From positions 4,735 through 68,734 of the forward strand of contig JBIKVS010000003.1 in assembly GCA_044356725.1 (NCBI GenBank): DNA of 64,000 nucleotides. The letters run 5' to 3'. The first letter of the stretch is position 1; every line of letters starts with the position of its first letter. The notes below the pieces were generated by a model, which was given only the letters and a program-made list of their open reading frames with translations, did not search any database and had not been told where the DNA came from. Shown here one piece after another: positions 13,370-56,584 of the stretch. This DNA comes from Minisyncoccia bacterium (GTDB lineage: Bacteria; Patescibacteriota; Minisyncoccia; SW-4-49-11). Made by a program: the position numbers and the translations under genes.

Positions 13370-13373
13370 ATAT

Positions 13374-21613: not shown

Positions 21614-21631
21614 TTATTTATCTATAAAATT

Positions 21632-21663
21632 AAAAAGAGATGCTATGTACATCTCTTTTTAAT
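21632..21663 (+). terminator. Rho-independent terminator after pilin gene 1
   Basis: aaaaagagatg-ctatgta-catctcttttt: a 6-7 bp stem followed by a T-run. Confidence 0.5.
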
Positions 21664-21670
21664 TTTCAAT

Positions 21671-21692
21671 TGTGGATAACTTTATATTGACA
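21671..21692 (+). promoter_or_regulatory. Second copy of aattgtggataactttatattgaca (DnaA box + -35), pilin gene 2 promoter
   Basis: tgtggataa at 21671-21679; TTGACA at 21687-21692; 17-nt spacer then TAATAT as the -10. Confidence 0.5.
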
Positions 21693-21752
21693 ATTTAAGA
21701 TATATAATTTAATATATATATAGAGTTATAATTAACATTAATCAAAAATAAT

Positions 21753-22253
21753 ATGAAAACTTACTCTACTTCATCAAGCAAAGGTTTCACCTTACTTGAA
21801 ATATTATTAGTTATCGCTGCTATCGGTATCTTAGCTGCTATCGTATTAGTTGCTATTAACCCTAATAGACAACTTGCACAAGCTCGTAATGCTCAGAGAA
21901 GATCTGATATTAATACTATACTGAATGCTGTTTATCAAAAAATTATTGATGAAGGTACCTCCGGAAGTACTGTCACATTAACTGCAATTTCTACTACAGC
22001 AGGAGAAGTTAATAGAAATAACACTACAGGCTCAACCGAATGTACAGGAACTGCTGTTAATATGTCATCTGTAGCATCAGATGCTGGAGCTGATGTTGTG
22101 CCTACTTATTTAGCAGCTATTCCTCAGGATCCATCTGAACCAGGAACTTCAAATTGTAGTGGATATCTAATTTCTAAAGACGGGAATAATAGAATAACTG
22201 TCACTGCTGACAATACCGAGTTAGTAACTCCAGACTTCTTTGTAACAAGATAA
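21753..22253 (+). CDS. Type IV pilin paralog (tandem duplicate)
   Basis: The first roughly 55 codons are almost identical at the nucleotide level to the 21083 gene (MKTYSTSSSKG|FTLLEILLVIAAIGILAAIV...); the C-terminal half has diverged. Confidence 0.8.
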   Translation: MKTYSTSSSKGFTLLEILLVIAAIGILAAIVLVAINPNRQLAQARNAQRRSDINTILNAVYQKIIDEGTSGSTVTLTAISTTAGEVNRNNTTGSTECTGTAVNMSSVASDAGADVVPTYLAAIPQDPSEPGTSNCSGYLISKDGNNRITVTADNTELVTPDFFVTR

Positions 22254-24447: not shown

Positions 24448-24590
24448 AGACGGAAGAAAGGTTATACTTATTTACTATATTATATTGTACCTAAAATATA
24501 GTAAATAATCAATATATTGTATGAGATGATGAAATCGTAGACATTGAGTCAAGGAATGAAAGTAATCCATAGAGTATCAGACAATTAACT

Positions 24591-24846
24591 GTCCTCCCTT
24601 CTACCTACGGCAGACAGGTGGGAGAGGTGGCCCCGTAAATGGGTCGGGAAAACTGGAGTTTTCCTGTGGAGGAAGGCAACGAGGTCAAAGACCGAGTGTT
24701 GGAAACCGTGGCTTTCCAAGGAACAAATCCCATTTGCGAAGACGGAGGAGGACTTCAGGCGGACGTAAGCTCCCACCTATGGTCTATACTTCATAATTCA
24801 ATCTCTATCCACCCTCCCCCTTCCGGTACTCCCTCCTAAGGGAGAC
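24591..24846. repeat. GC-rich hairpin-dense modular element (family copy 3, expanded)
   Basis: Module B 5' half gtcctccctt (24591) and 3' half gacggaggaggact (24741-24757) are separated by a GC-rich insert of about 140 nt. Module A is in inverse orientation: atccaccctcccccttccggtactccctcctaagggagac (24808-24846). The AT motif ttcataattca lies adjacent. The ORFs predicted here on both strands are judged spurious. Confidence 0.6.
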
Positions 24847-24901
24847 AAAATACATCTCAATATTAAAGTATTGTCTACGATGTTTCTAATCTTTTTAAAT
24901 G

Positions 24902-36613: not shown

Positions 36614-37894
36614 CTATCTAATTACACATCTAAAGCCATGTGTAGGTAAAGAGCATGTAGTATTACAAGGGCCAATTGAGAAAACTCCAGCTCCTTCTTG
36701 AGTCGAATCCCAACCTCCTGACCATGAACCACCTCTCATCCAATTAGAGATCTGAGTTGAGCTACTAGGAGAATGACTTATTAATTGTCCTATATTATTA
36801 GAGCTGTTCCAAGCTATATTGCTAGGTCGATAATAATCATAGTATAATATTCCATTACTGATAATATTATTAAATTCTACTCCAGCCCAACTAATTTGAT
36901 TGTTTGAATAAGGCATATCTTTTTGTTGAATAGTATCTGTAGTCCACTCCCATAGATTACCACTAATATCCCAAATAGTTTCCCCATTACTTAATATATG
37001 TGTTCTTTTTTGCTGCCATCCATTATTAATACTATTCCCTGTATCTTTATATCCCAAATTATCATCTGTGCTAGCTTCTAGAGCTGTATTCGGATTATTA
37101 TCACTATGTCCTCTCCAAATCCCTCCATTACCAATTTCGTTTACTGGAGTTGGGATTGGATTATACCAGTTATTAGATACCGATTCTATATTTCTAGATA
37201 TAGTCATACCTTCTACATTAGTCATTAAACTAGCTCCTGCATTAACACAATAACTTGCAGCCGTTGCTTGATCTATATTAGCTATTGGATACCCAGTAGC
37301 TACACTGGCTATAGTTCTACCATTAGCTGCTGTAGTGGGGGTGGTATTATTTGCTATAGTATTGAAACCAGTATTTGGAGTTGTTAAACCTACAGTTGGA
37401 CTATTGATAGCTACTGCTTTAGCTTCGTATTTCATCACACAAAAGTCTTTGGTTTGATATAGGCTGTTTCCGGGTACTTTTATATAACCTGTTGGACAGC
37501 TGAAGTTTCCTGCTGTATCTGTTGTATTGACATAGACTCTACCATCATTCCCTCTTGCTACCGTATATGTGGTACTACTTGGTATTGCGGATACATATTC
37601 TGGTATTAAACTACTTAGGTTTATACAGTCTGGTGTATTTACTGTATTACTACATACTTTCCTTTGTACTCCATCTAGTCCTGCTGGGTAATTACCTGTA
37701 TCTATCAATCTCTGTTGTAATGCTTTCTCTATTGTATTCTTATCGCTATTTATTGCTGCTTGTCTTGCTTGGTTTATTTGTCTATTTGGATTTATGGCTA
37801 CCAGTACTATTGCCGCTAATATTCCTATTGCTGCTATTACTAATAATATCTCTAGGAGGGTGAAGCCTTTGTTGGCTTTTATATTTCTATTCAT
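36614..37894 (-). CDS. Prepilin-type N-terminal domain fused to an FGE-sulfatase-like (C-type-lectin-fold) domain
   Basis: The ORF track extends to 37978 (TTG start). The likely true start is the ATG at 37892-37894, giving the leader MNRNIKANKG|FTLLEILLVIAAIGILAAIV. C-terminal CPTGYIKVPGNSLYQTKDFCVMKYEAK, GNLWEWTTD, MRGGSW and a terminal HGFRCVIR; paralogous to the C-terminus of 18845-20848. Confidence 0.6.
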   Translation of the reverse strand: MNRNIKANKGFTLLEILLVIAAIGILAAIVLVAINPNRQINQARQAAINSDKNTIEKALQQRLIDTGNYPAGLDGVQRKVCSNTVNTPDCINLSSLIPEYVSAIPSSTTYTVARGNDGRVYVNTTDTAGNFSCPTGYIKVPGNSLYQTKDFCVMKYEAKAVAINSPTVGLTTPNTGFNTIANNTTPTTAANGRTIASVATGYPIANIDQATAASYCVNAGASLMTNVEGMTISRNIESVSNNWYNPIPTPVNEIGNGGIWRGHSDNNPNTALEASTDDNLGYKDTGNSINNGWQQKRTHILSNGETIWDISGNLWEWTTDTIQQKDMPYSNNQISWAGVEFNNIISNGILYYDYYRPSNIAWNSSNNIGQLISHSPSSSTQISNWMRGGSWSGGWDSTQEGAGVFSIGPCNTTCSLPTHGFRCVIR

Positions 37895-40874: not shown

Positions 40875-43800
40875 CTATTTTAATCTTAACAAATAAGTTC
40901 CACTCTGGTTATTATAAACCTGAAACCTCCCTCCAACTACTATCTTTCCATCTGATTGGATAGCGATAGTATTGACAGTCTCATTAAATCCTGTACCTAT
41001 CTCAAAACTATTATCTCTACTTCCATTACTATTGAGTCTTATTATTCTATTAGCTGATGCTCCTCCTTGATCTATAATTTCTGTATAATCATATTCTTCA
41101 TTATACTCTAACTCTCCCTGATATAACTCAAACCCTCCTCCTACTACTATCTTTCCATCTGATTGGATAGCGATAGTATTGACAGTCTCATTAAATCCTG
41201 TACCTATCTCAAAACTATCATCTCTACTTCCATCATTATTTAAACGAATTATTCCATTAGCTGAGGATCCTCCTTGATCTATAATTTCTGTATAATCATA
41301 TTCTTCATTATACTCTAACTCTCCCTGATATAGGTTAAAATATCCTCCAACTACTATCTTACCATCTGATTGGATAGCGATAGTATTGACAGTACCATCA
41401 AATCCTGTGCCTATCTCAAAACTATTATCTCTACTTCCATTACTATTGAGTCGGATTATGCTATTAGCTGATGCTCCTTTATAATTGCTAAAGTCTCCTC
41501 CTACTATTATCTTTCCATCACTTTGGATAGCGATAGTATTGACAGTCTCATTAAATCCTGTACCTATCTCAAAACTATCATCTCTACTTCCATCACTATT
41601 TAAACGAATTATTCCATTAGCTGAGGATCCTCCTTGATCTATCATTTCTGTATAATCATATTCTTCATTATACTCTAACTCTCCCTGATATAGGTTAAAA
41701 TATCCTCCAACTACTATCTTACCATCTGATTGGATAGCGATAGTATTGACAGTACCATCAAATCCTGTGCCTATCTCAAAACTATTATCTCTACTTCCAT
41801 TACTATTGAGTCGGATTATGCTATTAGCTGATGCTCCTTTATAATTGCTAAAGTCTCCTCCTACTACTATCTTTCCATCTGATTGGATAGCGATAGTATT
41901 GACAGTACCATCAAATCCTGTGCCTATCTCAAAACTATTATCTCTACTTCCATCACTATTTAAACGAATTATTCCATTAGCTGATTCTCCTTTATAATTG
42001 CTAAAACCTCCTCCTACTATTATCTTTCCATCACTTTGAGTTTTAACTATATCGACATCTGAGTCAAAAGAAATTTTATTGGTGTATTTAATTCTAAGTG
42101 ACAATCCACTATCAAAGTCAGTAGATCTACTACCGTCCAAATTAAATTTTAGAATACTTCCGATAGTAACGTCAATTGCTCCTCCATCAGTATTAAAGTT
42201 AGAAATCCATTCCTCATTTTCAAAATCTATCGTCTGCATATCAATTAATTCTCCATCTGCATTATATACATTATTAACTGTTGTAAACAAAGCTCCTCCT
42301 AGAAAAATAGTGTTATTAACTAATAACATTCTATCCGCGATATTAGGTGTTAATAAACTATTCATATCTAAACTAAAACTTGTATCTCTACTTCCATCAC
42401 TATTTAGTTTTAAAATATTTCCTCCAAAATCTTCAATTTCCCCAGAAAAATTTCTAAATAAGATAAATATAGTACCATCGCTTTGTTCATAAATATCTTG
42501 TATATAAAAGTATGTGTTTATACTTGGTAAAGATATATCTGAATTAAATGATAAATCTTTTTCACCATTGCTTGTTAACCTAATTAATCTATTTACTGAA
42601 TTGTTTTGATATGTTCTAAAATCTCCTCCTACCAATATCTTGCCATCAGTTTGTAACAATATACTGTTGACTACACCTCCACCAAACCAATCACCAAACC
42701 CTGACCCCATATCAAAGCTGCTATCTCTACTACCATCACTATTTAATCGAATTATTTTATTTGCTCCCAAGCCATTATAACTAGTAAAATTTCCTCCTAT
42801 CAATATCTTGCCATCTGACTGAACAACCAATTTATACACAGACCTATCTATACCTGAAAAACCCGTGCCTATATTAAAGCTTGTATCTCTACTTCCATCA
42901 CTATTTAATCGGATTATTCTATTTGCTCCTACACCATTATAACTAGTAAAATTTCCTCCTACTATTATCTTGCCATCTTCCTGTATGGCTAAAGTATTGA
43001 CAGAATCATCCCCGGCCGTTGTTCCATCCAGACTCCCCCTAAATCCTGTCCCTATATTAAAGCTTGTATCTCTACTTCCATCACTATTAAGTCTAACTAT
43101 TCCATTAGTTGATTCTCCTAGATACTCATTAAAATCTCCTCCTACCAATATCTTTCCATCTGACTGTTCCTTTATATCAAATACACAGCAACTTATGTCA
43201 CCTGAATTAAAACTTTCATCTATATCTCCATTTTGATTAATTCTAAATATATTATTGATATAATCACTATTAATTGTATTTACTAGTATATTACCATCAC
43301 TTTGTAATTCGAAAACAGTAGATTGTATGAGTTCAGATTCTAAAAAATTGTCAATATCAATAATGTACCTATTGGAATCAGAAATTAATTCAAACCCAAA
43401 ATTTCCTGTGTAAAAATCTTTATCTATTATTCCTGTGGCTGTGTTTAAAGGAGGATTTATACCATCATCTACATCATCTGTATCTGGAGGGATAACTGAT
43501 GGATTTGGAGTAGTTGGGATATTAGGTGTAATTGGATTTATAGGTAAATTAGGTACACTAGGAATACTTGGGACATTCGGTATACTTGGTTTATTAGTTA
43601 TACTTGGTAATTCTATTGGCTTATTATTTGTAATAGGTGGTTTATAAACTTCTATTGGAGAATATCTCAAAGGCTGACTTCTTATACCCCTATATTCTCC
43701 CCTTATATTATTAACTATTGTTGCTATACGTTGTTCTCGTTTTTCCTCATTCTCTCTTGTTACTACTGTGCTATTTCTATCATCTACATCTTGATCTCTG

Positions 43801-43958
43801 TTATTCTCTACTTTACTATTTTCTATCTTATTAACTGATTCTATATTTAATTCATCAATATCTGTATTTATATTATATATAATATATACTCCTAATACTA
43901 ATCCTATACTGATTCCTATTGTTAATAGGATATTTTTTAAATTTACTTTTCTCTGCAT
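40875..43958 (-). CDS. Giant surface protein with delta-60-type beta-propeller repeats and a Pro-rich stalk
   Basis: N-terminal TM; Pro-rich linker (PSIPNVPSIPSVPNLPINPITPNIPTTPNPSVIPP); then more than 10 repeats of IIRLNSDGSRD.SF.IGTGF.GTVNTIAIQSDGKI.VGG.F, matching the delta-60 repeat pattern. Confidence 0.6.
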   Translation of the reverse strand: MQRKVNLKNILLTIGISIGLVLGVYIIYNINTDIDELNIESVNKIENSKVENNRDQDVDDRNSTVVTRENEEKREQRIATIVNNIRGEYRGIRSQPLRYSPIEVYKPPITNNKPIELPSITNKPSIPNVPSIPSVPNLPINPITPNIPTTPNPSVIPPDTDDVDDGINPPLNTATGIIDKDFYTGNFGFELISDSNRYIIDIDNFLESELIQSTVFELQSDGNILVNTINSDYINNIFRINQNGDIDESFNSGDISCCVFDIKEQSDGKILVGGDFNEYLGESTNGIVRLNSDGSRDTSFNIGTGFRGSLDGTTAGDDSVNTLAIQEDGKIIVGGNFTSYNGVGANRIIRLNSDGSRDTSFNIGTGFSGIDRSVYKLVVQSDGKILIGGNFTSYNGLGANKIIRLNSDGSRDSSFDMGSGFGDWFGGGVVNSILLQTDGKILVGGDFRTYQNNSVNRLIRLTSNGEKDLSFNSDISLPSINTYFYIQDIYEQSDGTIFILFRNFSGEIEDFGGNILKLNSDGSRDTSFSLDMNSLLTPNIADRMLLVNNTIFLGGALFTTVNNVYNADGELIDMQTIDFENEEWISNFNTDGGAIDVTIGSILKFNLDGSRSTDFDSGLSLRIKYTNKISFDSDVDIVKTQSDGKIIVGGGFSNYKGESANGIIRLNSDGSRDNSFEIGTGFDGTVNTIAIQSDGKIVVGGDFSNYKGASANSIIRLNSNGSRDNSFEIGTGFDGTVNTIAIQSDGKIVVGGYFNLYQGELEYNEEYDYTEMIDQGGSSANGIIRLNSDGSRDDSFEIGTGFNETVNTIAIQSDGKIIVGGDFSNYKGASANSIIRLNSNGSRDNSFEIGTGFDGTVNTIAIQSDGKIVVGGYFNLYQGELEYNEEYDYTEIIDQGGSSANGIIRLNNDGSRDDSFEIGTGFNETVNTIAIQSDGKIVVGGGFELYQGELEYNEEYDYTEIIDQGGASANRIIRLNSNGSRDNSFEIGTGFNETVNTIAIQSDGKIVVGGRFQVYNNQSGTYLLRLK
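40930..42060. repeat. Near-identical intragenic tandem DNA repeats (360-bp super-unit made of 207-bp plus 153-bp sub-units)
   Basis: The 22-mer ggatagcgatagtattgacagt recurs at 40958, 41165, 41372, 41525, 41732 and 41885 (spacings 207/207/153/207/153). Long stretches are identical, e.g. about 41281-41510 against 41641-41870. Confidence 0.8.
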
Positions 43959-46024: not shown

Positions 46025-47098
46025 ATGTATAAACCTGGTTATAGTGTACTATTATTAACAATAATTATATCAACTATAGGAGTAGCTTTAGCTGTAAGTG
46101 CCCTTAGTAATAGTACTCAAATTGCAAGAACTAATATTAATATTACTGATGTTGTCCTAAATAAATCTAAAGCCTCAAGTTGTGTGGAAAAGGTCTTTAC
46201 TAAGTTAAAATCATATAGATTTTATGGCGGAGATGAGACCTTTGAAGATGGATGTAGAGTCTATACTATCTCAGGTATTGGGAATAGTGAAAGAGTTATC
46301 TACACCAAAGTAGAATCTTCTATCCTAGAGACTAAAATTAAACAAATTAATCCTAACATAATTATAGACTATCAAAAACAAATTACAAATGATCAATTAA
46401 TTCAAGCACAAGAGAATAACCCCTATGTGATTGACCCTAAAGCTATAAGATTATGGCTAAAGGCAGATAGAGCTGAGGCTAACAATAATAATCCCGTATT
46501 TAGTGTTAAAAACTCTACTGATGATTTAATCGACTTTGCTCAGCTTACTAATGCTCCAAATCTAGCTCCAACATTAATTACTAATGCTATTAACAATAGA
46601 CCTGCATTAAGATTTGATGGTATAGATGATTTTCTTACCAGTACCACTACTTCTATACATACTAATAATGGATTAAGTATAATTGTAGTAGGAAAAACTA
46701 GTAATACTGCCAATAATAATCAGACTTATATTGGGAAATTTGATACTACTAATAATGAAAGAGAATGGAGATTGCAAAATGATGAATTTAATATCACAGA
46801 TAGTAACTTGTCCTTTGCAAATAATAATACTAACTTTAATATATTGACTGCACTATGGTCACCAACTTCTCCTCAAATGAGCTTATCTATAAATAATAAT
46901 CCAGCAACTACTGCTACTGGTTCAACTAGTATAACCAATACCACCGAGCCAATTATTGTTGGAGCTAATCTACAAGGAAGTACTGGATTCTTGAATGGGG
47001 ATATTGCTGAAATTTTGGTTTATAATAAAAAATTAAGCACAGATGAGTTAAATAAAGTCAAAACTTATATGAACTCTAAATATAGTCTTTACCCATAA
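46025..47098 (+). CDS. Secreted/pilin-like protein with C-terminal LamG-like (concanavalin A-like) domain
   Basis: N-terminal hydrophobic segment KPGYSVLLLTIIISTIGVALAV is pilin-like but lacks Glu at +5. The C-terminal end LNGDIAEILVYNKKLSTDELNKVKTYMN is typical of a LamG domain. Confidence 0.5.
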   Translation: MYKPGYSVLLLTIIISTIGVALAVSALSNSTQIARTNINITDVVLNKSKASSCVEKVFTKLKSYRFYGGDETFEDGCRVYTISGIGNSERVIYTKVESSILETKIKQINPNIIIDYQKQITNDQLIQAQENNPYVIDPKAIRLWLKADRAEANNNNPVFSVKNSTDDLIDFAQLTNAPNLAPTLITNAINNRPALRFDGIDDFLTSTTTSIHTNNGLSIIVVGKTSNTANNNQTYIGKFDTTNNEREWRLQNDEFNITDSNLSFANNNTNFNILTALWSPTSPQMSLSINNNPATTATGSTSITNTTEPIIVGANLQGSTGFLNGDIAEILVYNKKLSTDELNKVKTYMNSKYSLYP

Positions 47099-47101
47099 AA
47101 T

Positions 47102-48970
47102 ATGAAAAAATATTCAGGATTTACATTATTAGAAATACTATTATATGTAGTTATTGGTGGAGTCACTTTAGCTGTAGCTGTATTTTCATTTGCTCAATTG
47201 AATAGACTCTCTACTTCTTTTAGAGTTAATAATGAATTAAATCAAACTGGCAGCTCAATTATTAGTCAAATTCAAAATATAATCAATGAAGCTGATACTA
47301 TTATAAGTCCCAAATTAGGTAATAATCCTGATAACACTCTAGTCTTGAGAAAAGGGAATGTCGACACTACTATAACCCAATCAGATAATAATATAGTTGT
47401 ATCTTATAGTGATAGTACCCCATCCTTCAATCTGAATCCAGCTGGGATACTAGCTGTAAACACTCCATCACCCACTCTATCATTCGAACAAATTGATACT
47501 CAAGAGAATAAAGATCCAAACAATATATCTCAAACTCTAAAGCTAAAATTTACTCTTAGGTATAACAAACCTGCCTTTAGTAGTTATGAATATGAGGCTG
47601 AGAAGGCTTTTGAAACTACTTTACAATTATCTAAAAAAGCCACTGCCTTTGAGCCTATTCTTAACACATATTCAACAGGAGCCAATGGAGTCGCTTATGG
47701 GTTAAGAAAATTAGTTGGATTTAATACTAATACCAATCTATTATCCTCAGCCTATAATGGACCTGCAATTAGAGTTAGAAGAGATACTGGATTAGATCAA
47801 AGTGAAATGGATATAGGCTTTAATTCTAGAGGAGAATTAGACACAGTAGCTTTACAAAATTTTGTTGGTTATCAAAACTTTTTTAATTATTCTGAAGATA
47901 TAACTAGTCCTAATGGTGGTTGGAGTTTGAATAATATAACAACCATATCAGATAATACAATAGCACCTGATGGGACTAATACTGCTGAGAAAGTTAATCT
48001 GAATACTGGTAATACTCAAAGATTTATATTAAAGGATACAAATATAGTCAGTGGGGCTACTTATACCGACTCCTATTATGTAAAAGCTAATAATAATTAT
48101 AATTTTGTTCAGATAGCAACTAGTACTGGTTTTTCAACCACAGCTTATCAGAACTATAATCTAAGCAATGGCACACTGGTAAGTTCATCTGGAGTTACTG
48201 CTGGGCAAGCTAATATTCAATCTGTAGGAAATGGTTGGTATCGTATTTCTCTCTCAGCCACAGCTACTGCATCTGGTGCTGGAAGAATGGTTTTAGCTAT
48301 TGTAAATTCAGCTACTTCTGCCAGATTAGAGAATGTCAATGTAGCTAATACTACAGACTCAATATTTGTATGGGGTGGCATGAGACATCTTGGGAACACC
48401 CTGAAGACTTATCAAAAAACAACTATCAATGCTAATACTGGGGACGGGTATATCTCTACTTGGTATGACCAATCTGGCAATAAGAATAATGCTATTCAAA
48501 CTAATACATCAGCTCAACCTAAAATTGTAGATGGAGTTACAGGAATAGTATTACAAAATAATAAACCAGCCATTAGATTTGATGGTTCTGATGACCAATT
48601 AGTAAATACATCTTTTAATAATGCTACCAACTCTACAGCATTCTTTATAGCTAGTAGACTCACTAACAATCAATCCTTTATGGCAAGATCTAACAATTAT
48701 GCTACCTTAGGAGCTACAGATTTATTCAATCCATATTATCTGAATAAATCTAGCACATCTGCAACACCTGGATCAGATACTAAAAATAGTCTAAATCTAT
48801 ATACAGCTATTAGAACTTCAGCTATTAATAGCACTCTTAATATAGGAGCTGGAAGTACTGGAAATTTCTTAAATGGTCATATATCTGAGCTAATTATATA
48901 TGATGGTAATAAATTAGCTAATAAATTAGATATTGAGAATAATCTTAGAGATTATTACGGAACTCCATAA
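47102..48970 (+). CDS. Prepilin-type N-terminus fused to a large LamG-like domain protein
   Basis: Leader MKKYSG|FTLLEILLYVVIGGVTLAV; C-terminal GNFLNGHISELIIYDGNKLANKLDIENNL, a LamG-type end; 622 aa. Confidence 0.6.
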   Translation: MKKYSGFTLLEILLYVVIGGVTLAVAVFSFAQLNRLSTSFRVNNELNQTGSSIISQIQNIINEADTIISPKLGNNPDNTLVLRKGNVDTTITQSDNNIVVSYSDSTPSFNLNPAGILAVNTPSPTLSFEQIDTQENKDPNNISQTLKLKFTLRYNKPAFSSYEYEAEKAFETTLQLSKKATAFEPILNTYSTGANGVAYGLRKLVGFNTNTNLLSSAYNGPAIRVRRDTGLDQSEMDIGFNSRGELDTVALQNFVGYQNFFNYSEDITSPNGGWSLNNITTISDNTIAPDGTNTAEKVNLNTGNTQRFILKDTNIVSGATYTDSYYVKANNNYNFVQIATSTGFSTTAYQNYNLSNGTLVSSSGVTAGQANIQSVGNGWYRISLSATATASGAGRMVLAIVNSATSARLENVNVANTTDSIFVWGGMRHLGNTLKTYQKTTINANTGDGYISTWYDQSGNKNNAIQTNTSAQPKIVDGVTGIVLQNNKPAIRFDGSDDQLVNTSFNNATNSTAFFIASRLTNNQSFMARSNNYATLGATDLFNPYYLNKSSTSATPGSDTKNSLNLYTAIRTSAINSTLNIGAGSTGNFLNGHISELIIYDGNKLANKLDIENNLRDYYGTP

Positions 48971-49233
48971 GTTTAGTTAATATTTTTTAAAGTAAGTTTA
49001 TGTTCTCTGAAATATAATACGGTAAATCTCAGTATTTTTTAAATCCAAAAGGACTGAGCTCTGCCTTCTAAAAATCACTACCTACTTTTTACCTCTTAAC
49101 CCATGTTTTCATAGATAAGCCTCGGCTTTTGTCATTGATGATCTGAGCTTATTTTCTACGGCCTTGAGATGTTTATTATATTTATTGTTTTCTCTCATCT
49201 ATTTTGGTGTTTAGATAAAGTTGGAAGATCTTA

Positions 49234-49331
49234 GTCCTCCTCCGTCACCTACGGTGACACCTCCCCCAAGGGAGGACAGTTCTTATCTTGTCTCCATTTG
49301 GAGGGAGTACCCGCAGGGGGAGGGAGGACAG
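49234..49331. repeat. GC-rich hairpin-dense modular element (family copy 4)
   Basis: Module B in reverse orientation, gtcctcctccgtcacctacggtgacacctcccccaagggaggacagtt (49234-49281), is the reverse complement of the 18621-18663 copy with one mismatch. Module A gtctccatttggagggagtacccgcagggggagggaggaca (49290-49330). It sits between convergent genes. Confidence 0.65.
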
Positions 49332-49334
49332 AGC

Positions 49335-50525
49335 CTACAGCCCAAATCTACCTTTGGTAGCATTGAAGTTTTGTTGAATTTCTTCTGGGGTAAGTGCTCT
49401 ACTATAAAATTTTGCAGAATATATTCTACCATTAAAAAATCCATAACTTGGGTAAGCGCCTATCAAATCTGTAGTGATTTTTACATTTGTTCTTGTACTA
49501 GCTAGACCATTTTTTATAAATGTTCCATTTATATAAAGAGAAGGAACTTTATTTGTATAATTTACTACTATATGAATTGGGGCATTTATAGTAACTGAGT
49601 GCGATAATAATGGAGGCATATAAGCAGCTGAATGCTCATAAACACTTATACCATTAGTTCCAACTGATATTCCAGAACCGGCATCAGGAGATGCAACAAA
49701 TTGAGGGCCAATTACATATTTTTGTCCTGATGTACCCCCAAAACCAGAATTAGTTTGTGATTCTATTTCGTGAGTTGTTTGTGGTAGGCACCAAATATCG
49801 TATGAAAAATTATTAAAAACATTAGAAGTACTTGAGGATACTCTATCATCGCCCCCATCAAAGACTAAAGCACCTCCATTAGCAGAGTTGTAGGTAGGAG
49901 TAGAAGGAGCTGGAGCAAGTGTCCCATTATTATTGTTCCCACTTAAATCAAACCAGGTATTTTGGGCTGTATTTAAACCTGGATAACTATTTATATTACC
50001 TGCATCTAGATGTAATACTAGTCCATTAGTGACTATAGATGGAGTGATTGTATTAGATTGTAGTTCAGTAGTAGCTTCTTTATTAATTACTCCTGACTTA
50101 TTAATTATAATAGACTTACTTACTCCCCCACCAGTTAAATCTATTTTAATAGAATCATTACTCAAGTCTAGTTCACCATTGATAAGCTTGAATGGTATGT
50201 CTAATGTCTGTTCTGAACTGACTGTGATGCCAGAATTGATTGTGATAATTTCAGGATATTGAGTAGATGTACAGGTTACTGCTGTTATAGTGTATGTTTT
50301 AGCAGTATTATCTATACATACTCTCCATTGAGAATCTTTATACTGATTTTTAGATAATTGTTGGGCTCTTAGCAATGCATTGTAGAGAGATTCATGGGCT
50401 GCACTTAAATCATTGCGGATTACTATACTAGATACTAAAGGTGTCGTAATAGCTATAAGAATAGCTATCAAAACTATTACTAAAGTAATTTCTATTAATG
50501 TAAAACCTTTATATTTACCCTTCAT
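49335..50525 (-). CDS. Pseudopilin/type IV pilin-like protein with C-terminal LamG-like domain
   Basis: Leader MKGKYKG|FTLIEITLVIVLIAILIAI; C-terminal GFFNGRIYSAKFYSRALTPEEIQQNF, a LamG-type end; last gene of the pilus block. Confidence 0.65.
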   Translation of the reverse strand: MKGKYKGFTLIEITLVIVLIAILIAITTPLVSSIVIRNDLSAAHESLYNALLRAQQLSKNQYKDSQWRVCIDNTAKTYTITAVTCTSTQYPEIITINSGITVSSEQTLDIPFKLINGELDLSNDSIKIDLTGGGVSKSIIINKSGVINKEATTELQSNTITPSIVTNGLVLHLDAGNINSYPGLNTAQNTWFDLSGNNNNGTLAPAPSTPTYNSANGGALVFDGGDDRVSSSTSNVFNNFSYDIWCLPQTTHEIESQTNSGFGGTSGQKYVIGPQFVASPDAGSGISVGTNGISVYEHSAAYMPPLLSHSVTINAPIHIVVNYTNKVPSLYINGTFIKNGLASTRTNVKITTDLIGAYPSYGFFNGRIYSAKFYSRALTPEEIQQNFNATKGRFGL

Positions 50526-50533
50526 ACTTTGAT

Positions 50534-51805
50534 TTAAGCTTGAAAATTACCAACTAAGCTATAAATTGGGAGTAAAATAGCAACTGCCAAAAATACAACA
50601 CCTACCCAAACTATTATCAATAAAGCCGGTTCTAATAGAACAGCAATGTTCTTAGCAATCTGCTCTGATTCCTGCTCATATCTCTCCCCCAATTGCTCCA
50701 ATACTTCTGGTAACTTTCCTGACTCTTCCCCAGCTGTTATAATTTCTTGAGCTGCGAATGGAAGTATTGAATTAGTTCTTTTCTTATTCACCTCAAATAT
50801 ATTATGAAAACTTTTACCACTTTGAATATAATTGGCTAAAAATTGGGTGTAGTTTTTGTACATATAATAATCGTGAATTTTAGATAAAGACAATAAAGCC
50901 TTCGTGATAGGAATACCTGAATTTAATAACATTGCAAGGTTATAAGCAAACCTAGAGACCTCAGTTTTAACGATTAAATCATTGAATACTGGTAAATGAA
51001 ATAATAGCCACTGACCAGACTTTCTTGTTGCTGGAAAGACGAAAAGCACTAAAATTGATAGAACCAATGTTCCTACAATTAAAGGTATAATAATATACCA
51101 ATACTTAGACATAAATTCTCCAATTTGGATTAAAATTCTAGTCATTACTGGTAATTTTACATTCATATTCGAGAATACCTGTCCAATTCTAGGCAAAATG
51201 AAAGTTGAAACTCCTATACCCAAAACTAAAACCAGTGTAAGAACAAATATAGGATAGAATAAGGCCGATCTTAATTGTGCTCTACGCCTTTGATCCTTGT
51301 CTAGTGATATAACTGTTCTTTTAATTTTATCTGCTAAATTTCCTGATTCTTCACCAATTTGAATTAAAGAAATTAAGAAATCTGGTAAGAAATTATGGTC
51401 TTGCATTGTTTGAGACAAACTACTACCACTTTCCACACTGCTTAACATTGAGTTGAGTGTTTTTTTCAAAGTTTTATCTTGAGTATTTTTATATAATATC
51501 CTTAAAGAAGTATTTACACCCATACCAGAACCTACTAATAATGCTAGGTTATCTAAAAAGGTTTTTTTTGCTTTAGTAACTTTACTGCTACCTCTTTTCA
51601 CTTTAGTACGAGTTGGAGTTTGATTCTGAAATGATTGCTTTGCATACAGTTGCTCAATTTCAGTAAAAACTGACTGATTAGCATTATCTATATTAACATC
51701 AGGATTTTGAGTTTCAATTGTATAATTAGGACTAACAACTTGATCTGTAGTTGTATTTAGATTATTAATCACGTCTTTTGATGTATCTTTTTTCTTAAAA
51801 AACAT
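50534..51805 (-). CDS. pilC: Type IV pilus/type II secretion inner-membrane platform protein (PilC/GspF family)
   Basis: Two T2SSF-like repeats with three TM segments; FLDNLALLVGSGMGVNTSL; adjacent to pilB. Confidence 0.8.
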   Translation of the reverse strand: MFFKKKDTSKDVINNLNTTTDQVVSPNYTIETQNPDVNIDNANQSVFTEIEQLYAKQSFQNQTPTRTKVKRGSSKVTKAKKTFLDNLALLVGSGMGVNTSLRILYKNTQDKTLKKTLNSMLSSVESGSSLSQTMQDHNFLPDFLISLIQIGEESGNLADKIKRTVISLDKDQRRRAQLRSALFYPIFVLTLVLVLGIGVSTFILPRIGQVFSNMNVKLPVMTRILIQIGEFMSKYWYIIIPLIVGTLVLSILVLFVFPATRKSGQWLLFHLPVFNDLIVKTEVSRFAYNLAMLLNSGIPITKALLSLSKIHDYYMYKNYTQFLANYIQSGKSFHNIFEVNKKRTNSILPFAAQEIITAGEESGKLPEVLEQLGERYEQESEQIAKNIAVLLEPALLIIVWVGVVFLAVAILLPIYSLVGNFQA

Positions 51806-51810
51806 ATATT

Positions 51811-53544
51811 TTAACTATATTCTTCTGGTATTTGTGCAACTCTCATAACTTCATCTAATGTAGTAACTCCTATTTTTACTTTTTCTATACCGTCCTCAAA
51901 TAAGGACATAGCTCCCTGTTTACGAGCTACTTTAGCTATGATATCAGAGGTAGGTTTATGTAAGACTAGTTCTCTTAATTCTTCTGACATTTCTATCAAC
52001 TGATAAATTCCACTTCTACCTTTATATCCTGTAAATCCACAGTTAGAGCATCCTTTACCTCTATACAATGTTATACTCTCTTCTGAGAAAAATCTTTCAA
52101 GTGACTCACCTACTGTTTCTTCTAACTCTGTTCTATTTACTGTATAGGTATATACACAAGCTGAACATATTTTACGGACTAATCTTTGAGCTACAATAAG
52201 TTGTAATGTTGTAGAAAGTAAAAATGGGTCAATATCCATATTCAATAGTCTTGGCAAGGTACTTTCCCCATCATTAGCATGAACGGTTGAAAACAACAAA
52301 TGTCCAGTTAAAGCTGCATTAATTGCAATTTGAGCTGTTTCATCATCTCTAATCTCTCCTACTAGAATTATATTAGGATCTTGACGCAAAATTGATCGTA
52401 ACCCACGAGCAAATGATAGGTCTGTTTCTTTATTAACTTGTATGTGATTAACTCCTTCAATTTTATACTCTACAGGATCTTCAATAGTAGTTATATTTCT
52501 ACCTTCATCATTAACTGTTTTCAATATAGAATAAAGGGTTGTAGATTTCCCTGAACCAGTAGGACCTGTGACCAATACCATTCCAAATGGTTTTTGAGAT
52601 GCCTTTCTTAATGTCTTTATATTTCTCTCATTAAGACCTAATGTGTCTAATGTAATGTTAGATAGTGTATTGGTTAAAACTCTAAGTGCAATTTTTTCTC
52701 CATATACAGTTGGTAAAATTGAAACTCGAACATCTGTAACTTGATTGTTTTTTTGGAAGCGAATGGCACCATCCTGAGGAATAAAATGCTCATCAGTTCT
52801 TAATTGTGCATTAACTTTAATTAAATTAAGAATATTTTCATAATATGAAAATGGTATTGTTCCAACTTCTTGCAACATACCATCTACCCTAAATCGAATT
52901 CTGACACTTTTATTATATTGTGGCTCAAAATGTATATCTGATACTCTCTCCTCTAAGGCTTCTTCTATAATTTCCTCTACAATCTCTGGAGCAACTGTGT
53001 CAAATTTATCCATTATGGATATAAATCTAGAAGATAAGGGGGCCTTATAGTTCAATAGAGATCTGTCTATATCCTGTGTTAAAGAGTATCCAAATTCTAT
53101 AGGTTTTTGGAATAACTTGATAAGCTCTTGACTTAAATCTTTCTCTTCTATAATTTCTTTTTTCCCCCCAATAAATCCAGTTTTCTCTTCTCTTTTTATA
53201 ATCAACTTAGCATTACCCTGCAATACAACCGGATTATCTGATGCAACTTGTATTTTATCAGCTAAGTCTTTGAAATACACTAATCTTAACTCACGAGCTA
53301 CAGACTCGGGAATTTTCATAACATCATCTTTAGCTGGAATAAAAGTATTTAAATCAAAGTAAGAAACTCCCCAGCTCTCTGCTAAAGCTTGCCCTATAAT
53401 ATCATACGTAATAATATTATTCTGAACTAAATAATCTATAGCAATAGCTGGGTCATTGTTAGTACTAGAAAGGGCTAACTTACAGTCATCTAAAGCTATA
53501 TATTGCGTATTTACTAATAGATCTAATATTTCTTTTGGTTCCAT
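51811..53544 (-). CDS. pilB: Type IV pilus assembly ATPase (PilB/GspE family)
   Basis: Walker A VLVTGPTGSGKSTTLYS, Asp/His boxes, and a C-terminal tetracysteine CSAC...CSNCGFTGYKGR. Confidence 0.9.
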   Translation of the reverse strand: MEPKEILDLLVNTQYIALDDCKLALSSTNNDPAIAIDYLVQNNIITYDIIGQALAESWGVSYFDLNTFIPAKDDVMKIPESVARELRLVYFKDLADKIQVASDNPVVLQGNAKLIIKREEKTGFIGGKKEIIEEKDLSQELIKLFQKPIEFGYSLTQDIDRSLLNYKAPLSSRFISIMDKFDTVAPEIVEEIIEEALEERVSDIHFEPQYNKSVRIRFRVDGMLQEVGTIPFSYYENILNLIKVNAQLRTDEHFIPQDGAIRFQKNNQVTDVRVSILPTVYGEKIALRVLTNTLSNITLDTLGLNERNIKTLRKASQKPFGMVLVTGPTGSGKSTTLYSILKTVNDEGRNITTIEDPVEYKIEGVNHIQVNKETDLSFARGLRSILRQDPNIILVGEIRDDETAQIAINAALTGHLLFSTVHANDGESTLPRLLNMDIDPFLLSTTLQLIVAQRLVRKICSACVYTYTVNRTELEETVGESLERFFSEESITLYRGKGCSNCGFTGYKGRSGIYQLIEMSEELRELVLHKPTSDIIAKVARKQGAMSLFEDGIEKVKIGVTTLDEVMRVAQIPEEYS

Positions 53545-53592: not shown

Positions 53593-53958
53593 TTATGTAA
53601 TCAGAACTTGTTTCACGGATTCAGCTAACTGACTAATTGAAACTTCTGATTTTACATAATAAGCAGTTATACCTAGCTTCTCAACACGAGTCCTATCTTC
53701 AGGTTGTCCTAAATTAGTCATAATAATTACCTTAGTAGATTTACTTTTTTTCCTAATAGATTCTAATATTGTAAATCCATCAGCGCCTGGCAATATTAAG
53801 TCTAGCAGAATACAGTCAAAATCTTGTTTATCTATAATACCAAGAGCAATAGTACCATCGTTGGCCACAGTGGTATCAAGTCCAATTTGCTTAAGCTTTA
53901 AATCTAAAACTCGTGCTATAGCTGGCTCATCTTCTATAATTAAAACTTTATATGACAT
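53593..53958 (-). CDS. Single-domain response regulator (CheY-like receiver)
   Basis: VLIIEDEP...ILLDLILPGADG carries the receiver-domain phospho-acceptor Asp; 121 aa with no output domain. Confidence 0.8.
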   Translation of the reverse strand: MSYKVLIIEDEPAIARVLDLKLKQIGLDTTVANDGTIALGIIDKQDFDCILLDLILPGADGFTILESIRKKSKSTKVIIMTNLGQPEDRTRVEKLGITAYYVKSEVSISQLAESVKQVLIT

Positions 53959-53986
53959 AATCTTTGATATATTTAAATTTATTATA

Positions 53987-55585
53987 TCACAGTTGACTTT
54001 TTATAACAATCGGTAATTCTAAAAAGAAAGTAGTTCCTTGATTTTCTTTTGATTCAAACCATACCGAACCATTCATAAGTTCAATTAATTTTTTAACTAT
54101 ATAAAGTCCTAGTCCATTACCATCTGGCTGACAGTTTTTAGCATTGTCTGCTCTAAATAATCTACCGAAAATTTGTGATTGTTGTGATTCTGGGATACCA
54201 ATTCCTGTGTCTGAAATTGTTATCATTAATCTATTTTTATCTACTGCCTTATCAACTGTTAATCTAATTTTACCATTTTGATTGCTATATTTAATAGCAT
54301 TATGTAATATGTTCAAAAATATTATATCTAAATATATTGGGTCGTTTTCTATTGATTGAGTAAAAGGTATATCTTTTTCAAATGTTAAATTTTTTAAATC
54401 TATTTCTGATTGTAAGGTCTTTGACAATGACTCTATATATGTGCTTAAATCAATTTCTTGAGTACTAAATTGAATTTTACCTAAATCAATTCTAGATAAA
54501 TTTAATAATGAATTGACTAACTTCTCCATTCGATTACCTTCTTTATATATATCATTAGCTGCAATACGAACCTCATCATCAATAGAATTATTGGACAAAA
54601 TAATTTCTGAATTCCATTTAATGGAGGTAATGGGAGTCCGCAACTGATGTGAGGCAAGTGATACAAACTCTTTTTGAGCCCTCTCCGTTGTACGTTCTTG
54701 AGTAGTATCACGAAGGATATATACAGAACCTAATATATCCTTATCCAATATAATAGGATTGGATGTATTCTCTAAAATTATATTTTTTTTCTTATTATTA
54801 GAGATGTAATTAAAAATACTTGTATATCTGTTTTTAGGGTTAATATTAAATTCTTCCTTACCATCAGAAATAGATTTATCTTCATTTAATTGTATATCTG
54901 GTAAGACATTGTAGATAAATTTACCAAGTATATCATTAACTCTTAAATCTAAAATATTTTCTAACTCTTTATTTACTAAAAATATATTCCCATCTTTACT
55001 TGTTACTAGAAGTCCATTTGGAAGGGAATCAATAATAGCATTTGTCTTTGCCTTTTCCAATTCTAATAATTTTTGTTGGCTTTCTAACTGCTTTACTAAA
55101 TTAGCCAACTCCTGTTTAGAGTCAGCTAATTCCTGATTTTGCTGCATTAACTCACTTAGTTTGTTCAAATAGCTCTCAGTACTTAAAGATAAATTAATTT
55201 TATTAGTCAGTGATGATCTATTCAACTGATATAGTGAGTTATTAACAAATTCATTTAAATATATCACCTGTGCTTTGTCTATTGAATCTTTATTAACTAA
55301 ATTAGATACTGTTTCAGAAATAATATTCAATGTTTCATAAACTGGTTTAATGATACCTATGTATAATGTATAAGAGAAAAACCAACCTATGACAAATAAT
55401 AATATAACTACCCCTATTAACAAGTGAGTGACTGAATCTGAATATATTATATCGATACCACCAGTATACCGCAAATAAGCTAACCCTATAATAATAATAT
55501 AGAGTATACTTGTAAATAATAATACTAATGCTGTAAATACACGAAACATTACTGACTTAATTAATGGATTAGATTTTGTATTCAT
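53987..55585 (-). CDS. Sensor histidine kinase
   Basis: Two N-terminal TM helices, a coiled-coil, a PAS-like region, HisKA H-box SLASHQLRTPITSI, and HATPase_c G-boxes DTGIGIP...GNGLGLYIV. Confidence 0.8.
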   Translation of the reverse strand: MNTKSNPLIKSVMFRVFTALVLLFTSILYIIIIGLAYLRYTGGIDIIYSDSVTHLLIGVVILLFVIGWFFSYTLYIGIIKPVYETLNIISETVSNLVNKDSIDKAQVIYLNEFVNNSLYQLNRSSLTNKINLSLSTESYLNKLSELMQQNQELADSKQELANLVKQLESQQKLLELEKAKTNAIIDSLPNGLLVTSKDGNIFLVNKELENILDLRVNDILGKFIYNVLPDIQLNEDKSISDGKEEFNINPKNRYTSIFNYISNNKKKNIILENTSNPIILDKDILGSVYILRDTTQERTTERAQKEFVSLASHQLRTPITSIKWNSEIILSNNSIDDEVRIAANDIYKEGNRMEKLVNSLLNLSRIDLGKIQFSTQEIDLSTYIESLSKTLQSEIDLKNLTFEKDIPFTQSIENDPIYLDIIFLNILHNAIKYSNQNGKIRLTVDKAVDKNRLMITISDTGIGIPESQQSQIFGRLFRADNAKNCQPDGNGLGLYIVKKLIELMNGSVWFESKENQGTTFFLELPIVIKSQL

Positions 55586-55589
55586 ATTT

Positions 55590-56024
55590 TTATTCTATAG
55601 TGTTAATAATAACTCCATTTTCGGCTAAAGGAGCTGAGACTATTACCCTCCCCTGATTATTTACATACACAGCATAGCCAGTAATATCTTCTCCCTGTTG
55701 CTGAGGGTCTATAGGAATGTTCCCAAAAGGAATATAAGCTTCTAAATCTGAACTGATATCTATTTTACTATTATCTAGAGTACAGCCTGGCTGACAAATA
55801 CTCTTAATATCATTTGTAACACCAGTAGGTAAATTTCCAGAATTAATATCTCTATATTGATTTATTGCTGTATAGATAGTCATTACATCCGCTTGTCTTT
55901 GAGCATTATTAATGTCTGCAATTTGTTGTCCTGGATTAATCAATCTAAACAGAATAACCATCAATATACTAACTAAAGTCATAACTAATAATATTTCTAA
56001 TAATGTAAATGCTTTTTTATTCAT
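55590..56024 (-). CDS. Pseudopilin/type IV pilin-like protein
   Basis: Leader MNKKA|FTLLEILLVMTLVSILMVIL; 144 aa. Confidence 0.7.
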   Translation of the reverse strand: MNKKAFTLLEILLVMTLVSILMVILFRLINPGQQIADINNAQRQADVMTIYTAINQYRDINSGNLPTGVTNDIKSICQPGCTLDNSKIDISSDLEAYIPFGNIPIDPQQQGEDITGYAVYVNNQGRVIVSAPLAENGVIINTIE

Positions 56025-56584
56025 TATGGTGTATTGTCATTGAATACATTATTTATATCACCTAAATTATCGTCAACTAGTCTATAATTAGCACTCTCAG
56101 CACTTACCCCTGTTGGTTTCTTAGTCATATTAATGAGTGTCTCTTTAAGTTCTATATCTTCCGTATCTCCCTCTGGATTGATTTGATAAGTTACTTTCAC
56201 TGTTACTAACTTAGCATCTGGAGTTACATCATTTTCAATTCTAACTCTACGAGTACGCACTGGATTATCTAATTTATCTTGTGAAGAAATTGGCGCTAAA
56301 ATAAGATTCCACTCACCATTTTCAAATGACAGCCCAAACTCTGCTCCACTAGGATTATTATCAAGATCATCTGTATTAATTAATAAAGAATAATCTTTAT
56401 CTCTAATTGACTTTAAAGCTATAATACCTTCCTTAGCCATAGCTAAAGCCTGACTTTGAGAGATACTAGACTGATTGTTCCTCTGAGCTATAAGCATAGA
56501 GGCAACTATACCAGCTATGGCTAAAGCTAAAATTGAACCTGCCAACAAAACTTCTATAATACTATAACCTTTTTTATATAACAT
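56024..56584 (-). CDS. Pseudopilin/type IV pilin-like protein
   Basis: Leader MLYKKG|YSIIEVLLAGSILALAIAGI with Glu at +5; 186 aa. Confidence 0.6.
   Translation of the reverse strand: MLYKKGYSIIEVLLAGSILALAIAGIVASMLIAQRNNQSSISQSQALAMAKEGIIALKSIRDKDYSLLINTDDLDNNPSGAEFGLSFENGEWNLILAPISSQDKLDNPVRTRRVRIENDVTPDAKLVTVKVTYQINPEGDTEDIELKETLINMTKKPTGVSAESANYRLVDDNLGDINNVFNDNTP

Follow-up and report, generated by a model that had tools for sequence, protein, structure and literature searches.

Three LamG-bearing pilin-like proteins beside a pilB-pilC operon of an uncultured Paceibacteria bacterium as candidate subunits of a tip-located adhesin complex

Introduction

In Streptococcus sanguinis a tip-located lectin pilin, PilC, is accompanied by a nucleator which lacks the glutamate at position +5 (Glu5), and for both GspK and S. 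sanguinis PilA it has been explained why a Glu5-less subunit would cap the filament (PMC9934059). The combinations N_methyl with PF13385 and N_methyl with PA14 are among the 15 commonest modular-pilin architectures, the candidate phyla radiation (CPR) included (PMC8179133), and in Nanosynbacter lyticus TM7x, one of the Saccharibacteria, two lectin-like minor pilins (PilX1 and PilX2) are known, of which PilX2 is needed for efficient host binding (PMC11623550). In addition, the head-spike fibre of the gene transfer agent (GTA) RcGTA binds capsular polysaccharide (PMC10218006). Here, three genes for LamG-bearing, pilin-like proteins (designated P1, P2 and P3) were analysed beside pilB and pilC in a 64-kb stretch of DNA (contig JBIKVS010000003.1; hereafter the window) from the chromosome of an uncultured, ultra-small Paceibacteria/Parcubacteria (CPR) bacterium. 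Together with an undecorated pilin of 186 amino acids (pilin186), the three proteins probably make up a tip-located adhesin complex of four minor pilins, which would bind glycans on the surface of a host cell. The locus consists of the following features (window coordinates; aa, amino acids; ORF, open reading frame):

46025-47098, + strand: P1, 357 aa, Glu5-less pilin-like scaffold with C-terminal LamG (ORF list)
47102-48970, + strand: P2, 622 aa, four-part modular pilin (ORF list)
48971-49334, no strand: convergent intergenic spacer, 364 nt, with GC-rich hairpin repeats at 49230-49333
49335-50525, - strand: P3, 396 aa, GspH-like pilin with LamG (ORF list)
50534-51805, - strand: pilC, platform protein (top matches NCBIfam GspF/PilC models)
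51811-53544, - strand: pilB, assembly ATPase (top matches NCBIfam PilB/GspE models)
53593-55585, - strand: response regulator and histidine kinase, between the pilin genes and pilB
55590-56024, - strand: 144-aa pilin, PilA-type, undecorated (Pfam N_methyl match)
56024-56584, - strand: pilin186, leader G/YSIIE (here and below the slash marks the predicted cleavage site), undecorated (weak NCBIfam GspI/XpsI/PilV/ComGE matches)

S. sanguinis PilC (7oa7/7oa8; PMC9934059, PMC8179133) likewise joins a short pilin module, a linker and a concanavalin-A-like lectin module, and S. sanguinis PilA, PilB and PilC are modular minor pilins encoded together which make up a tip complex that binds glycans, with the Glu5-less partner proposed to stand first at the tip. 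The present locus differs in that three of the four minor pilins carry LamG, in that the Glu5-less subunit is itself decorated, in that one subunit has a phage-fibre domain in addition, and in belonging to a CPR organism; with PilC the identity in sequence is no more than 14-16%. The TM7x proteins PilX1 (a beta-jelly-roll, L-type-lectin-like) and PilX2 (a beta-propeller) are comparable as the largest minor pilins of a CPR type IV pilus, with lectin-like C-termini and a proposed location at the tip. A propeller-bearing pilin comparable to PilX2 is also present in the window (34651-36552, - strand; 633 aa, a PilA-type scaffold with N_methyl and DUF5122/SBBP beta-propeller repeats). The organism studied here belongs, however, to the Paceibacteria and not to the Saccharimonadia, it has three LamG subunits against one jelly-roll, and the two systems are likened here by architecture and not by established sequence-level orthology.

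The GspH-I-J-K and FimU-PilV-W-X sets also comprise four minor pilins whose genes accompany those of the machinery; one of the four (K) is bulky and without Glu5, and assembly priming and tip capping have been proposed for the set. In the present locus the bulk of the putative K counterpart comes from a C-terminal LamG and not from the insertion of an alpha-domain; the genes are distributed between two convergent units, and an outer membrane and PilY1 are absent. Sequence-level homology to aa 258-442 of P2 was found in RcGTA Rcc01080 and in the phage proteins E217 gp45 and Pa193 gp46; unlike in these fibres, the domain lies in P2 behind a prepilin signal and pilin module and ahead of LamG. The Pam donor-strand pili of CPR (10.64898/2026.03.03.709456) were considered and set aside as an unrelated system.

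All three proteins are modular pilins in the sense of Raynaud and Pelicic, with N_methyl and PF13385 in P3, N_methyl, NF048003 and LamG in P2, and a Glu5-less scaffold with PF13385 in P1. The grafting of lectin modules on pilins is established, and P3 adds a member to the known N_methyl plus PF13385 architecture. Beyond the literature consulted are the decoration of three of the four core scaffolds, the putative Glu5-less cap included; the fusion of a pilin to a GTA/phage fibre cassette; an unannotated family of ~130-aa proposed cap pilins, which no Pfam model covers and of which 51 cluster representatives were found; and a bounded hypervariable LamG core in P3.

Results

Layout of the locus

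A sequence-only reading of this DNA had described three ORFs, convergently arranged next to pilB and pilC, and had listed their C-terminal endings. Coordinates, strands and endings all agreed with the ORF list, NCBIfam models identified PilC and PilB as the adjacent genes, and P1-P2 (+) was found to point toward P3 (-) over the 364-nt spacer. The gap between P1 and P2 is 3 nt, and P3 starts 8 nt past the stop codon of pilC. On the minus strand the order is pilin186, the 144-aa pilin, histidine kinase, response regulator, pilB, pilC and P3; P3 is thus the final gene of the pilB-pilC operon, and P1-P2 is a separate unit facing it across the spacer. PilB matched TIGR02538 with 493 bits, and both PilB and PilC are 81-95% identical in related metagenome-assembled genomes (MAGs).

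The response regulator is a single receiver domain and the kinase is of the PAS type; both are kept in every related locus, and the pilins of L080, a CPR operon described below, are likewise followed by a block of sensor genes. The embedded two-component genes suggest that piliation is under signal control.

P1 combines a Glu5-less scaffold with LamG

Two modules were distinguished in P1:

46025-46414, + strand: pilin-like module, aa 1-130 (alignment, AlphaFold2 (AF2) secondary structure, phmmer family)
46442-47095, + strand: LamG/concanavalin-A-like module, aa ~140-357 (Pfam, AF2, Foldseek, PHROG)

The leader of P1, MYKPG/YSVLL, is prepilin-like without Glu+5. The sequence-only reading had remarked on the missing residue, and it was found to be absent from all 27 aligned homologues as well; the leader M-Y-[KR]-x-G-[YF]-S-V-L-L-L-T-I-I is kept in 27/27, with an invariant Gly. 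It is nearly identical to the leader of pilin186 (MLYKKG/YSIIE), which reads M-x-Y-K-[KS]-G/Y-S-[IV]-[IV]-E in pilin186 and its orthologues. The module consists of a hydrophobic helix of ~22 residues, a second helix and a 3-stranded sheet, with invariant Cys53/Cys77. In the AF2 model (pLDDT 74, pTM 0.74) helices were predicted at aa 4-31 and 42-63 and three strands at aa 90-119, with low confidence at aa 26-40; overall, an N-terminal helix lies against a small sheet and is followed by a beta-sandwich ending in a C-terminal helix. P1 is filed as pilin-like and not as a canonical pilin because Glu5 is absent, as in tip subunits of the GspK/PilX type.

An exhaustive phmmer search with aa 1-135 of P1 gave 51 cluster representatives; most of them are proteins of 127-161 aa which stand alone and aligned end to end, and no Pfam model recognised them. 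All 20 of the scaffold relatives inspected have G/A at -1 and F/Y/L at +1, and in 20/20 the residue at +5 is hydrophobic or small and non-acidic, never Glu. One relative, P0313 (129 aa), sits in the pilB-pilC-minor-pilin operon of L080. P1 itself has 65 homologues, all from a narrow Parcubacteria/Paceibacteria clade; the MAGs with full-length relatives all bear the label Parcubacteria or Paceibacteria, except for two labelled Saccharibacteria. That the N-termini of the three proteins are, as had been supposed, of the class-III (prepilin) type and not ordinary Sec signals is borne out by the N_methyl matches of P2 and P3 and by the membership of P1 in a Glu5-less family found among CPR minor-pilin genes.

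Laminin_G_3 (PF13385) matched aa 223-342 of P1 with 29.8 bits (Pfam gathering threshold (GA) 27.6). Foldseek against the PDB found lectin-like domains of trypanosome trans-sialidases, botulinum/NTNH Hc-N domains, pentraxin and VIP36, and also the S. sanguinis lectin pilin PilC (7oa8/7oa7, E 1e-4 to 3e-4); a profile of the P1 family had no match among PDB sequences. The module also matched a virion structural protein family, phrog_10356 (E 2.3e-8).

P2 carries a phage-fibre domain and a cryptic LamG

P2 was divided into four parts:

47102-47641, + strand: pilin module, aa 1-180, MKKYSG/FTLLE (N_methyl, AF2, BLASTP to L080)
47654-47872, + strand: small conserved linker domain, aa 185-257 (invariant alignment columns)
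47873-48427, + strand: GTA-head-spike-fibre/phage baseplate-fibre domain, aa 258-442 (NCBIfam, PDB profile, Foldseek, PHROG)
48449-48967, + strand: cryptic C-terminal LamG, aa 450-622 (hhalign, AF2, tblastn, BFVD)

G/FTL[LI]E prepilin signals had been read in two of the three proteins and are present as FTLLE in P2 and FTLIE in P3. P2 matched N_methyl (PF07963) with 23.9-26 bits (Pfam GA 21.2), and in its AF2 model (pLDDT 82) the pilin part is formed by a helix at aa 9-63 and strands at 66-175 (pLDDT 75-92); as in P1, the C-terminus is a beta-sandwich followed by a terminal helix. Among ~70 close full-length homologues, 69 have the prepilin motif.

The linker domain, which had no Pfam match, is marked by the motif AYGLRKL...AIRVRRD...DIGF and also opens non-pilin proteins which share the downstream cassette. 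Aa 258-441 matched NCBIfam NF048003 ('phage head spike fiber domain') with 78.9 bits (cutoff 36), and the profile of the fibre family matched the RcGTA head-spike fibre Rcc01080 (6tb9, E 4.6e-30) and the baseplate proteins gp45 of phage E217 and gp46 of phage Pa193 (E ~4-5e-17). The top Foldseek matches of P2 were structures of the same two phages, E217 and Pa193 (9b45, 8env), and the fibre module matched the tail protein family phrog_5939. The cassette of aa 185-622 also occurs without the pilin part, in proteins of 460-490 aa (P0140, P0142, P0147, P0161), and none of 50 more distant fibre-domain proteins inspected had a prepilin N-terminus.

The C-terminus of P2 gave no Pfam LamG match, even when isolated and searched at E<=10. 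Family alignments built from database homologues were cut into sub-alignments and compared with hhalign, and P2 aa 450-622 matched the LamG of P1 with 98.2% probability (E 3e-14, 166 columns), as the LamG of P1 matched that of P3 (97.4%). Since hhalign links P2 to P1 and P1 to P3 in this way, the three C-termini are homologous LamG-type domains by sequence comparison, that of P2 being too divergent for Pfam; its link to the Pfam family is only transitive, via the P1 family. The P2 domain was also matched by a virion protein of Synechococcus phage S-CBS4 (tblastn, E 1e-10), and a search of viral structures (BFVD) with P2 gave 229 structural matches, several annotated as ConA-like lectin.

The sequence-only reading had predicted a LamG-like fold in all three proteins, and such a fold was found by profile in P1 and P3, by profile-profile comparison and structure in P2, and by structure search in P1, with a beta-sandwich (jelly-roll) in the AF2 models of P1 and P2. 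The hmmscan matches expected with it were obtained in part, namely Laminin_G_3 in P1 and P3 and N_methyl in P2 and P3, but not N_methyl in P1 or Laminin_G_3 in P2. The description of P2 as a pilin segment plus LamG is correct as far as it goes, both being present, but is incomplete, since P2 adds the phage-fibre module.

P3 has a GspH-like pilin module and a variable LamG core

In P3 two segments were delimited:

50046-50525, - strand: pilin module, aa 1-160, MKGKYKG/FTLIE (N_methyl; BLASTP to L080)
49401-49850, - strand: hypervariable core of the LamG, aa 226-375 (pairwise identity; DNA comparison to L001)

P3 matched N_methyl (25.4 bits, Pfam GA 21.2), TIGR02532 (21.5 bits, cutoff 16.3) and, over the whole model, Laminin_G_3 (39.1 bits, Pfam GA 27.6). 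There are 901 homologues, many of them annotated as prepilin-type with PF07963 and PF13385, and against PDB sequences the match was confined to the pilin alpha-1 helix. A match to TafC, a haloarchaeal Tat-fimbria subunit, was rejected (E 4e-4, 19.5 bits against a cutoff of 410); the two have only a LamG-like domain in common.

Across 27 orthologues of P3 the mean pairwise identity is 63% at aa 31-225, ~20% at aa 226-375 and 83-90% over the last 21 aa, and the value of ~20% holds between almost any pair of orthologues. At the DNA level, identity to the closest relative, L001, falls from 0.8-0.88 to 0.37-0.5 between ~49875 and 49416, recovers at the 3' end of P3, disappears once more in the spacer and is regained in P2. 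The nearest relatives of the P3 LamG in the window (66-74% identity) are proteins of 235-248 aa which start at the LamG and have no pilin part. The likeliest explanation of this sharp mosaic in the sequence is that the LamG core has been replaced. Because it is the most variable module, the core is the likeliest determinant of specificity.

Comparison with related genomes

Synteny of the locus is kept in seven MAGs, with the shared order FtsW - 254-aa gene - P1 - P2, followed on the opposite strand by P3 - PilC - PilB - response regulator - histidine kinase - 144-aa pilin - pilin186 - MraY. P1 and P2 are conserved and syntenic in 7/7 of these relatives. Five genomes (L003-L007) encode the P3 orthologue as a plain pilin, ~150-168 aa long and without LamG. 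In L002, P3 has 784 aa with Gly_rich_2 ahead of LamG, P2 is enlarged to 791 aa by a PA14/GLEYA insert, and an additional C-terminal domain of 270 aa, matching phrog_1325 (function unknown), is found in P1; a fibrinogen-like identity of this domain was unsupported, with no Pfam or PDB match and phrog_1325 as its only one. In L001 the P3 orthologue (13110-14313, - strand) is split into two overlapping ORFs, one of 267 aa holding the pilin and the start of LamG and one of 155 aa holding the remaining LamG (Laminin_G_3, 64 bits); the split reflects either pseudogene formation by frameshift or a fault of assembly. Modules are swapped, added or lost between close relatives. PHROG virion or tail families matched modules of all three proteins, and phage genomes hold both the fibre and the LamG parts of P2 in virion/tail proteins (tblastn).

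A set of four minor-pilin scaffolds

The pilus operon of L080 is undecorated, and the gene order is pilB-pilC-150-471-170-129 (P0313)-152 aa. The proteins pair with those of the window as follows:

150 aa, directly after pilC: the P3 pilin module (BLASTP E 8e-8)
471 aa (N-terminus): pilin186 (BLASTP E 1.6e-11)
170 aa, stand-alone minor pilin: P2 aa 1-176 (BLASTP E 8.6e-5 over 182 aa)
129 aa (P0313): P1 aa 3-122 (BLASTP E 7e-12)
152 aa: PilA-type pilins of the window (BLASTP E 1e-17 to 4e-24)

When the N-terminal module of P1 was compared with those of P2 and P3 by hhalign, the probability was 7-12%. P1, P2 and P3 are three non-equivalent scaffolds (K-, J- and H-like), which most likely co-assemble. 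The P3 orthologue of L004 (168 aa, pilin only) matched Pfam GspH with E 1.8e-3 (19.2 bits, GA 21), pilin186 matched GspI with E 9e-3 and XpsI/PilV also weakly, and matches to TIGR01708/01707 were far under cutoff and N-terminal only; GspJ, GspK and PilX_N gave no match for the pilins of the window. None of the four belongs to GspH, GspI, GspJ or GspK at curated cutoffs. By analogy, P1-P3 and pilin186 may be read as a four-member GspH/I/J/K-like set with P1 in the position of the Glu5-less cap, because of the number and order of the genes, their Glu5 status and the one-to-one mapping to L080.

Other features of the window

The window has a GC content of ~30%, and the rest of it is mostly housekeeping (mraZ/mraW, murD, ftsW, mraY, lon, S2, EF-Ts and a Cpn60-family (GroEL-type) chaperonin); GrpE is also present, its homology having been recognised by eye and not by profile.

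Two further pilin genes of 176 and 166 aa lie as tandem duplicates at 21083-21613 (+ strand) and 21753-22253 (+ strand) and include a 291-nt direct repeat (88% identity) which spans upstream DNA and the 5' ends; they are candidate major pilins away from the pilB-pilC operon. A pilin of 426 aa (36614-37894, - strand) has a PilA-type scaffold, N_methyl and an FGE-sulfatase-like (C-type-lectin-like) domain (21.9 bits against GA 23.3). It has an FGE-sulfatase-like segment in common with a non-pilin protein of 667 aa (18845-20848, - strand), seen as an 80-nt repeat of 79% identity. A protein of 1027 aa (40875-43958, - strand) with at least 16 DUF5122 beta-propeller repeats, encoded by highly repetitive DNA of 207/153-nt periodicity, is located three genes from P1-P2 (FtsW and the 254-aa gene lie between), is conserved in L004/L005 and is probably another surface protein.

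A diversity-generating retroelement was considered as the source of the variable modules and rejected, as no template/variable repeat pair was found in the window. The sole coding repeat (19521-19600 against 37419-37498, 79% identity), that of the 667-aa and 426-aa proteins, is ordinary paralogy with mixed substitutions which are not adenine-specific and gives no sign of such an element. No reverse transcriptase was seen among the ORFs of the window scanned with Pfam, a few short ORFs being unscanned.

The spacer between P2 and P3 gave an RNA fold of -52.3 kcal/mol (z -2.2) and one terminator-like site (49240-49223, - strand); it is not conserved in the closest relative, with no alignment to L001. 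An RNA gene at this position was rejected, as Rfam at gathering threshold gave only tRNA-Phe in the window; under permissive scans whalefall-1 matched below threshold (14-21 bits against GA 37). GC-rich hairpin repeats are dispersed between genes at 49230-49333, 18619-18668, 24589-24765, 24803-24852 and 10579-10632. One copy of module A (CTGTCCTCCCTTGGGGGAGGTGTCACCG.AGGTGACGGAGGAGGACT) lies at 18.6 kb and a second, in inverted orientation, immediately 3' of P3; these two are 96% complementary, and at 24.6 kb the termini of the module flank a GC-rich insert of ~150 nt. Copies of module B (GGAGGGAGTACCCG.AGGGGGAGGG), to which the whalefall-1 matches correspond, were seen at 10.6, 24.8 and 49.3 kb and, once, in L002. 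The hairpins may represent REP-like elements, terminators or a family of small RNAs, and are not part of the pilin story.

Discussion

Gene anatomy, domain homologies, synteny, scaffold correspondences and patterns of variability were observed directly in this locus; adhesion by the pilus is the step beyond them which homology suggests. In the mechanism proposed, PilB and PilC would polymerise a PilA-type pilin into a type IV pilus, with the 144-aa pilin of the operon and the tandem 166/176-aa pilins at 21083-22253 as candidates for the shaft. The four minor pilins would prime assembly and stay at the filament tip, P3 in a GspH-like, pilin186 in a GspI/PilV-like, P2 in a J-like and P1 in a K-like role, and P1 would be uppermost because its lack of Glu5 is as expected of a subunit with no pilin above it. 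With receptor-binding modules grafted on three of the four C-termini (LamG on P1, phage-fibre and LamG on P2, LamG on P3), the tip would show three or four lectin-type domains outward, which may bind surface polysaccharide of a partner cell; the replaceable LamG of P3 would tune specificity, and the modules would be drawn from a pool common to phage and GTA receptor-binding proteins. From homology and from the precedents of S. sanguinis PilABC (PMC9934059), TM7x PilX1/PilX2 (PMC11623550) and the RcGTA fibre (PMC10218006), we infer co-assembly at the tip, processing of P1 by prepilin peptidase, glycan binding, a role in host range and a host-dependent lifestyle.

A number of observations weigh against this proposal. 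P1 matched neither N_methyl (Pfam) nor TIGR02532 (NCBIfam), and a signal anchor is conceivable for its N-terminus. Support for the H/I/J/K labels comes from gene position and from weak matches, most of which lie below threshold. Genes for a prepilin peptidase (PilD), PilM/N/O and PilT were not found in the 64-kb window by Pfam scans. P1 and P2 change evenly along their length at about the rate of neighbouring housekeeping genes and not faster, so the signature of specificity switching is confined to P3. Finally, ConA-like folds also occur in glycoside hydrolases, which leaves room for an enzymatic role.

The sequence-only reading had spoken of several alternative tip or minor subunits. LamG pilins that are interchangeable, each in a different pilus, would give the cell a repertoire of specificities, and the kinship of all three C-termini, the optional nature of the P3 module among relatives and the presence of the 633-aa and 426-aa modular pilins, whose PilA scaffolds could make them alternative shaft or tip subunits, are in keeping with this. 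Such an arrangement is nevertheless unlikely and the word 'alternative' was dropped, as the three scaffolds are not paralogues (the hhalign values given above), each has its counterpart in a separate gene of the block of four minor pilins in L080, and P1 and P2 are conserved and syntenic in seven relatives in the manner of core assembly components. A competence (Com-type) pilus or short pseudopilus, serving DNA uptake or secretion and using LamG to anchor on its own wall or to capture substrate, is improbable. PilB scores far higher as type IVa PilB (493 bits) than as ComGA (252 bits), the TM7x T4P-2 pilin mutants tested were not impaired in competence while host binding was affected by the module-bearing PilX2 (PMC11623550), and modules that resemble phage receptor-binding proteins and vary between lineages suit the recognition of a foreign surface better than housekeeping; these points are to be set against weak NCBIfam matches of the pilins to ComGC/D/E/F and GspG/H, the absence of pilT from the window, and the natural competence of CPR bacteria with which T4P-like genes are linked (background in PMC10633639, PMC11623550).

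It is less probable again that only P2 and P3 are true pilins and that P1 is a membrane-anchored or Sec-secreted surface lectin. Besides the missing profile matches and Glu+5, the low AF2 confidence at aa 26-40 and the empty search of PDB sequences point that way, but the leader MY[KR]xG/[YF]SV does not vary and resembles the leader of pilin186, the adjacent pilin, the hydrophobic stretch of ~22 residues exceeds a Sec h-region, and stand-alone relatives occur within minor-pilin blocks of pilB-pilC operons; moreover, absence of Glu5 is the hallmark of tip subunits of the GspK/PilX and S. sanguinis PilA types (PMC9934059), and P1 is translationally coupled to P2 across their 3-nt gap. Glycanase- or depolymerase-like modules, by which the pilus, in the manner of phage tail-spike depolymerases, would deliver enzymes against the capsule or wall of a host, are very improbable. 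Structural neighbours do include domains of sialidases, GH54, GH43 and endo-arabinanase, and there is kinship with phage virion proteins, but what was matched in the enzymes is their non-catalytic lectin or carbohydrate-binding module (CBM) domains, receptor-binding domains of BoNT/NTNH, CBM61/CBM22 and the lectin module of PilC are also among the best matches, no glycoside-hydrolase family model was matched in the Pfam scans, and the homologous GTA fibre is a binder (PMC10218006).

The tip-located adhesin complex of four minor pilins is therefore preferred. A bolder version, which we regard as possible but doubtful, would make the four-pilin tip of these episymbiont-type bacteria in effect a phage-like receptor-binding organelle that exchanges modules with the phage/GTA pool and whose P3 core is a cassette switching host range; recombination between the conserved flanks would replace the LamG core of P3. 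If this is true, the 150-aa core of P3 would be a readable marker of host specificity in uncultured Paceibacteria.

Surveys based on N_methyl and Pfam miss two of the three decorated pilins, P1 (no N_methyl) and P2 (LamG and fibre invisible to Pfam). How CPR/Patescibacteria find and attach to hosts is little understood beyond a few cultured Saccharibacteria, and Paceibacteria are essentially without genetics. The locus provides a concrete, conserved candidate for an attachment device, an explicit assignment of its four minor-pilin scaffolds is now available, and its binding modules are common to phage receptor-binding proteins; aa 226-375 of P3 could be mined across metagenomes as a marker of host range.

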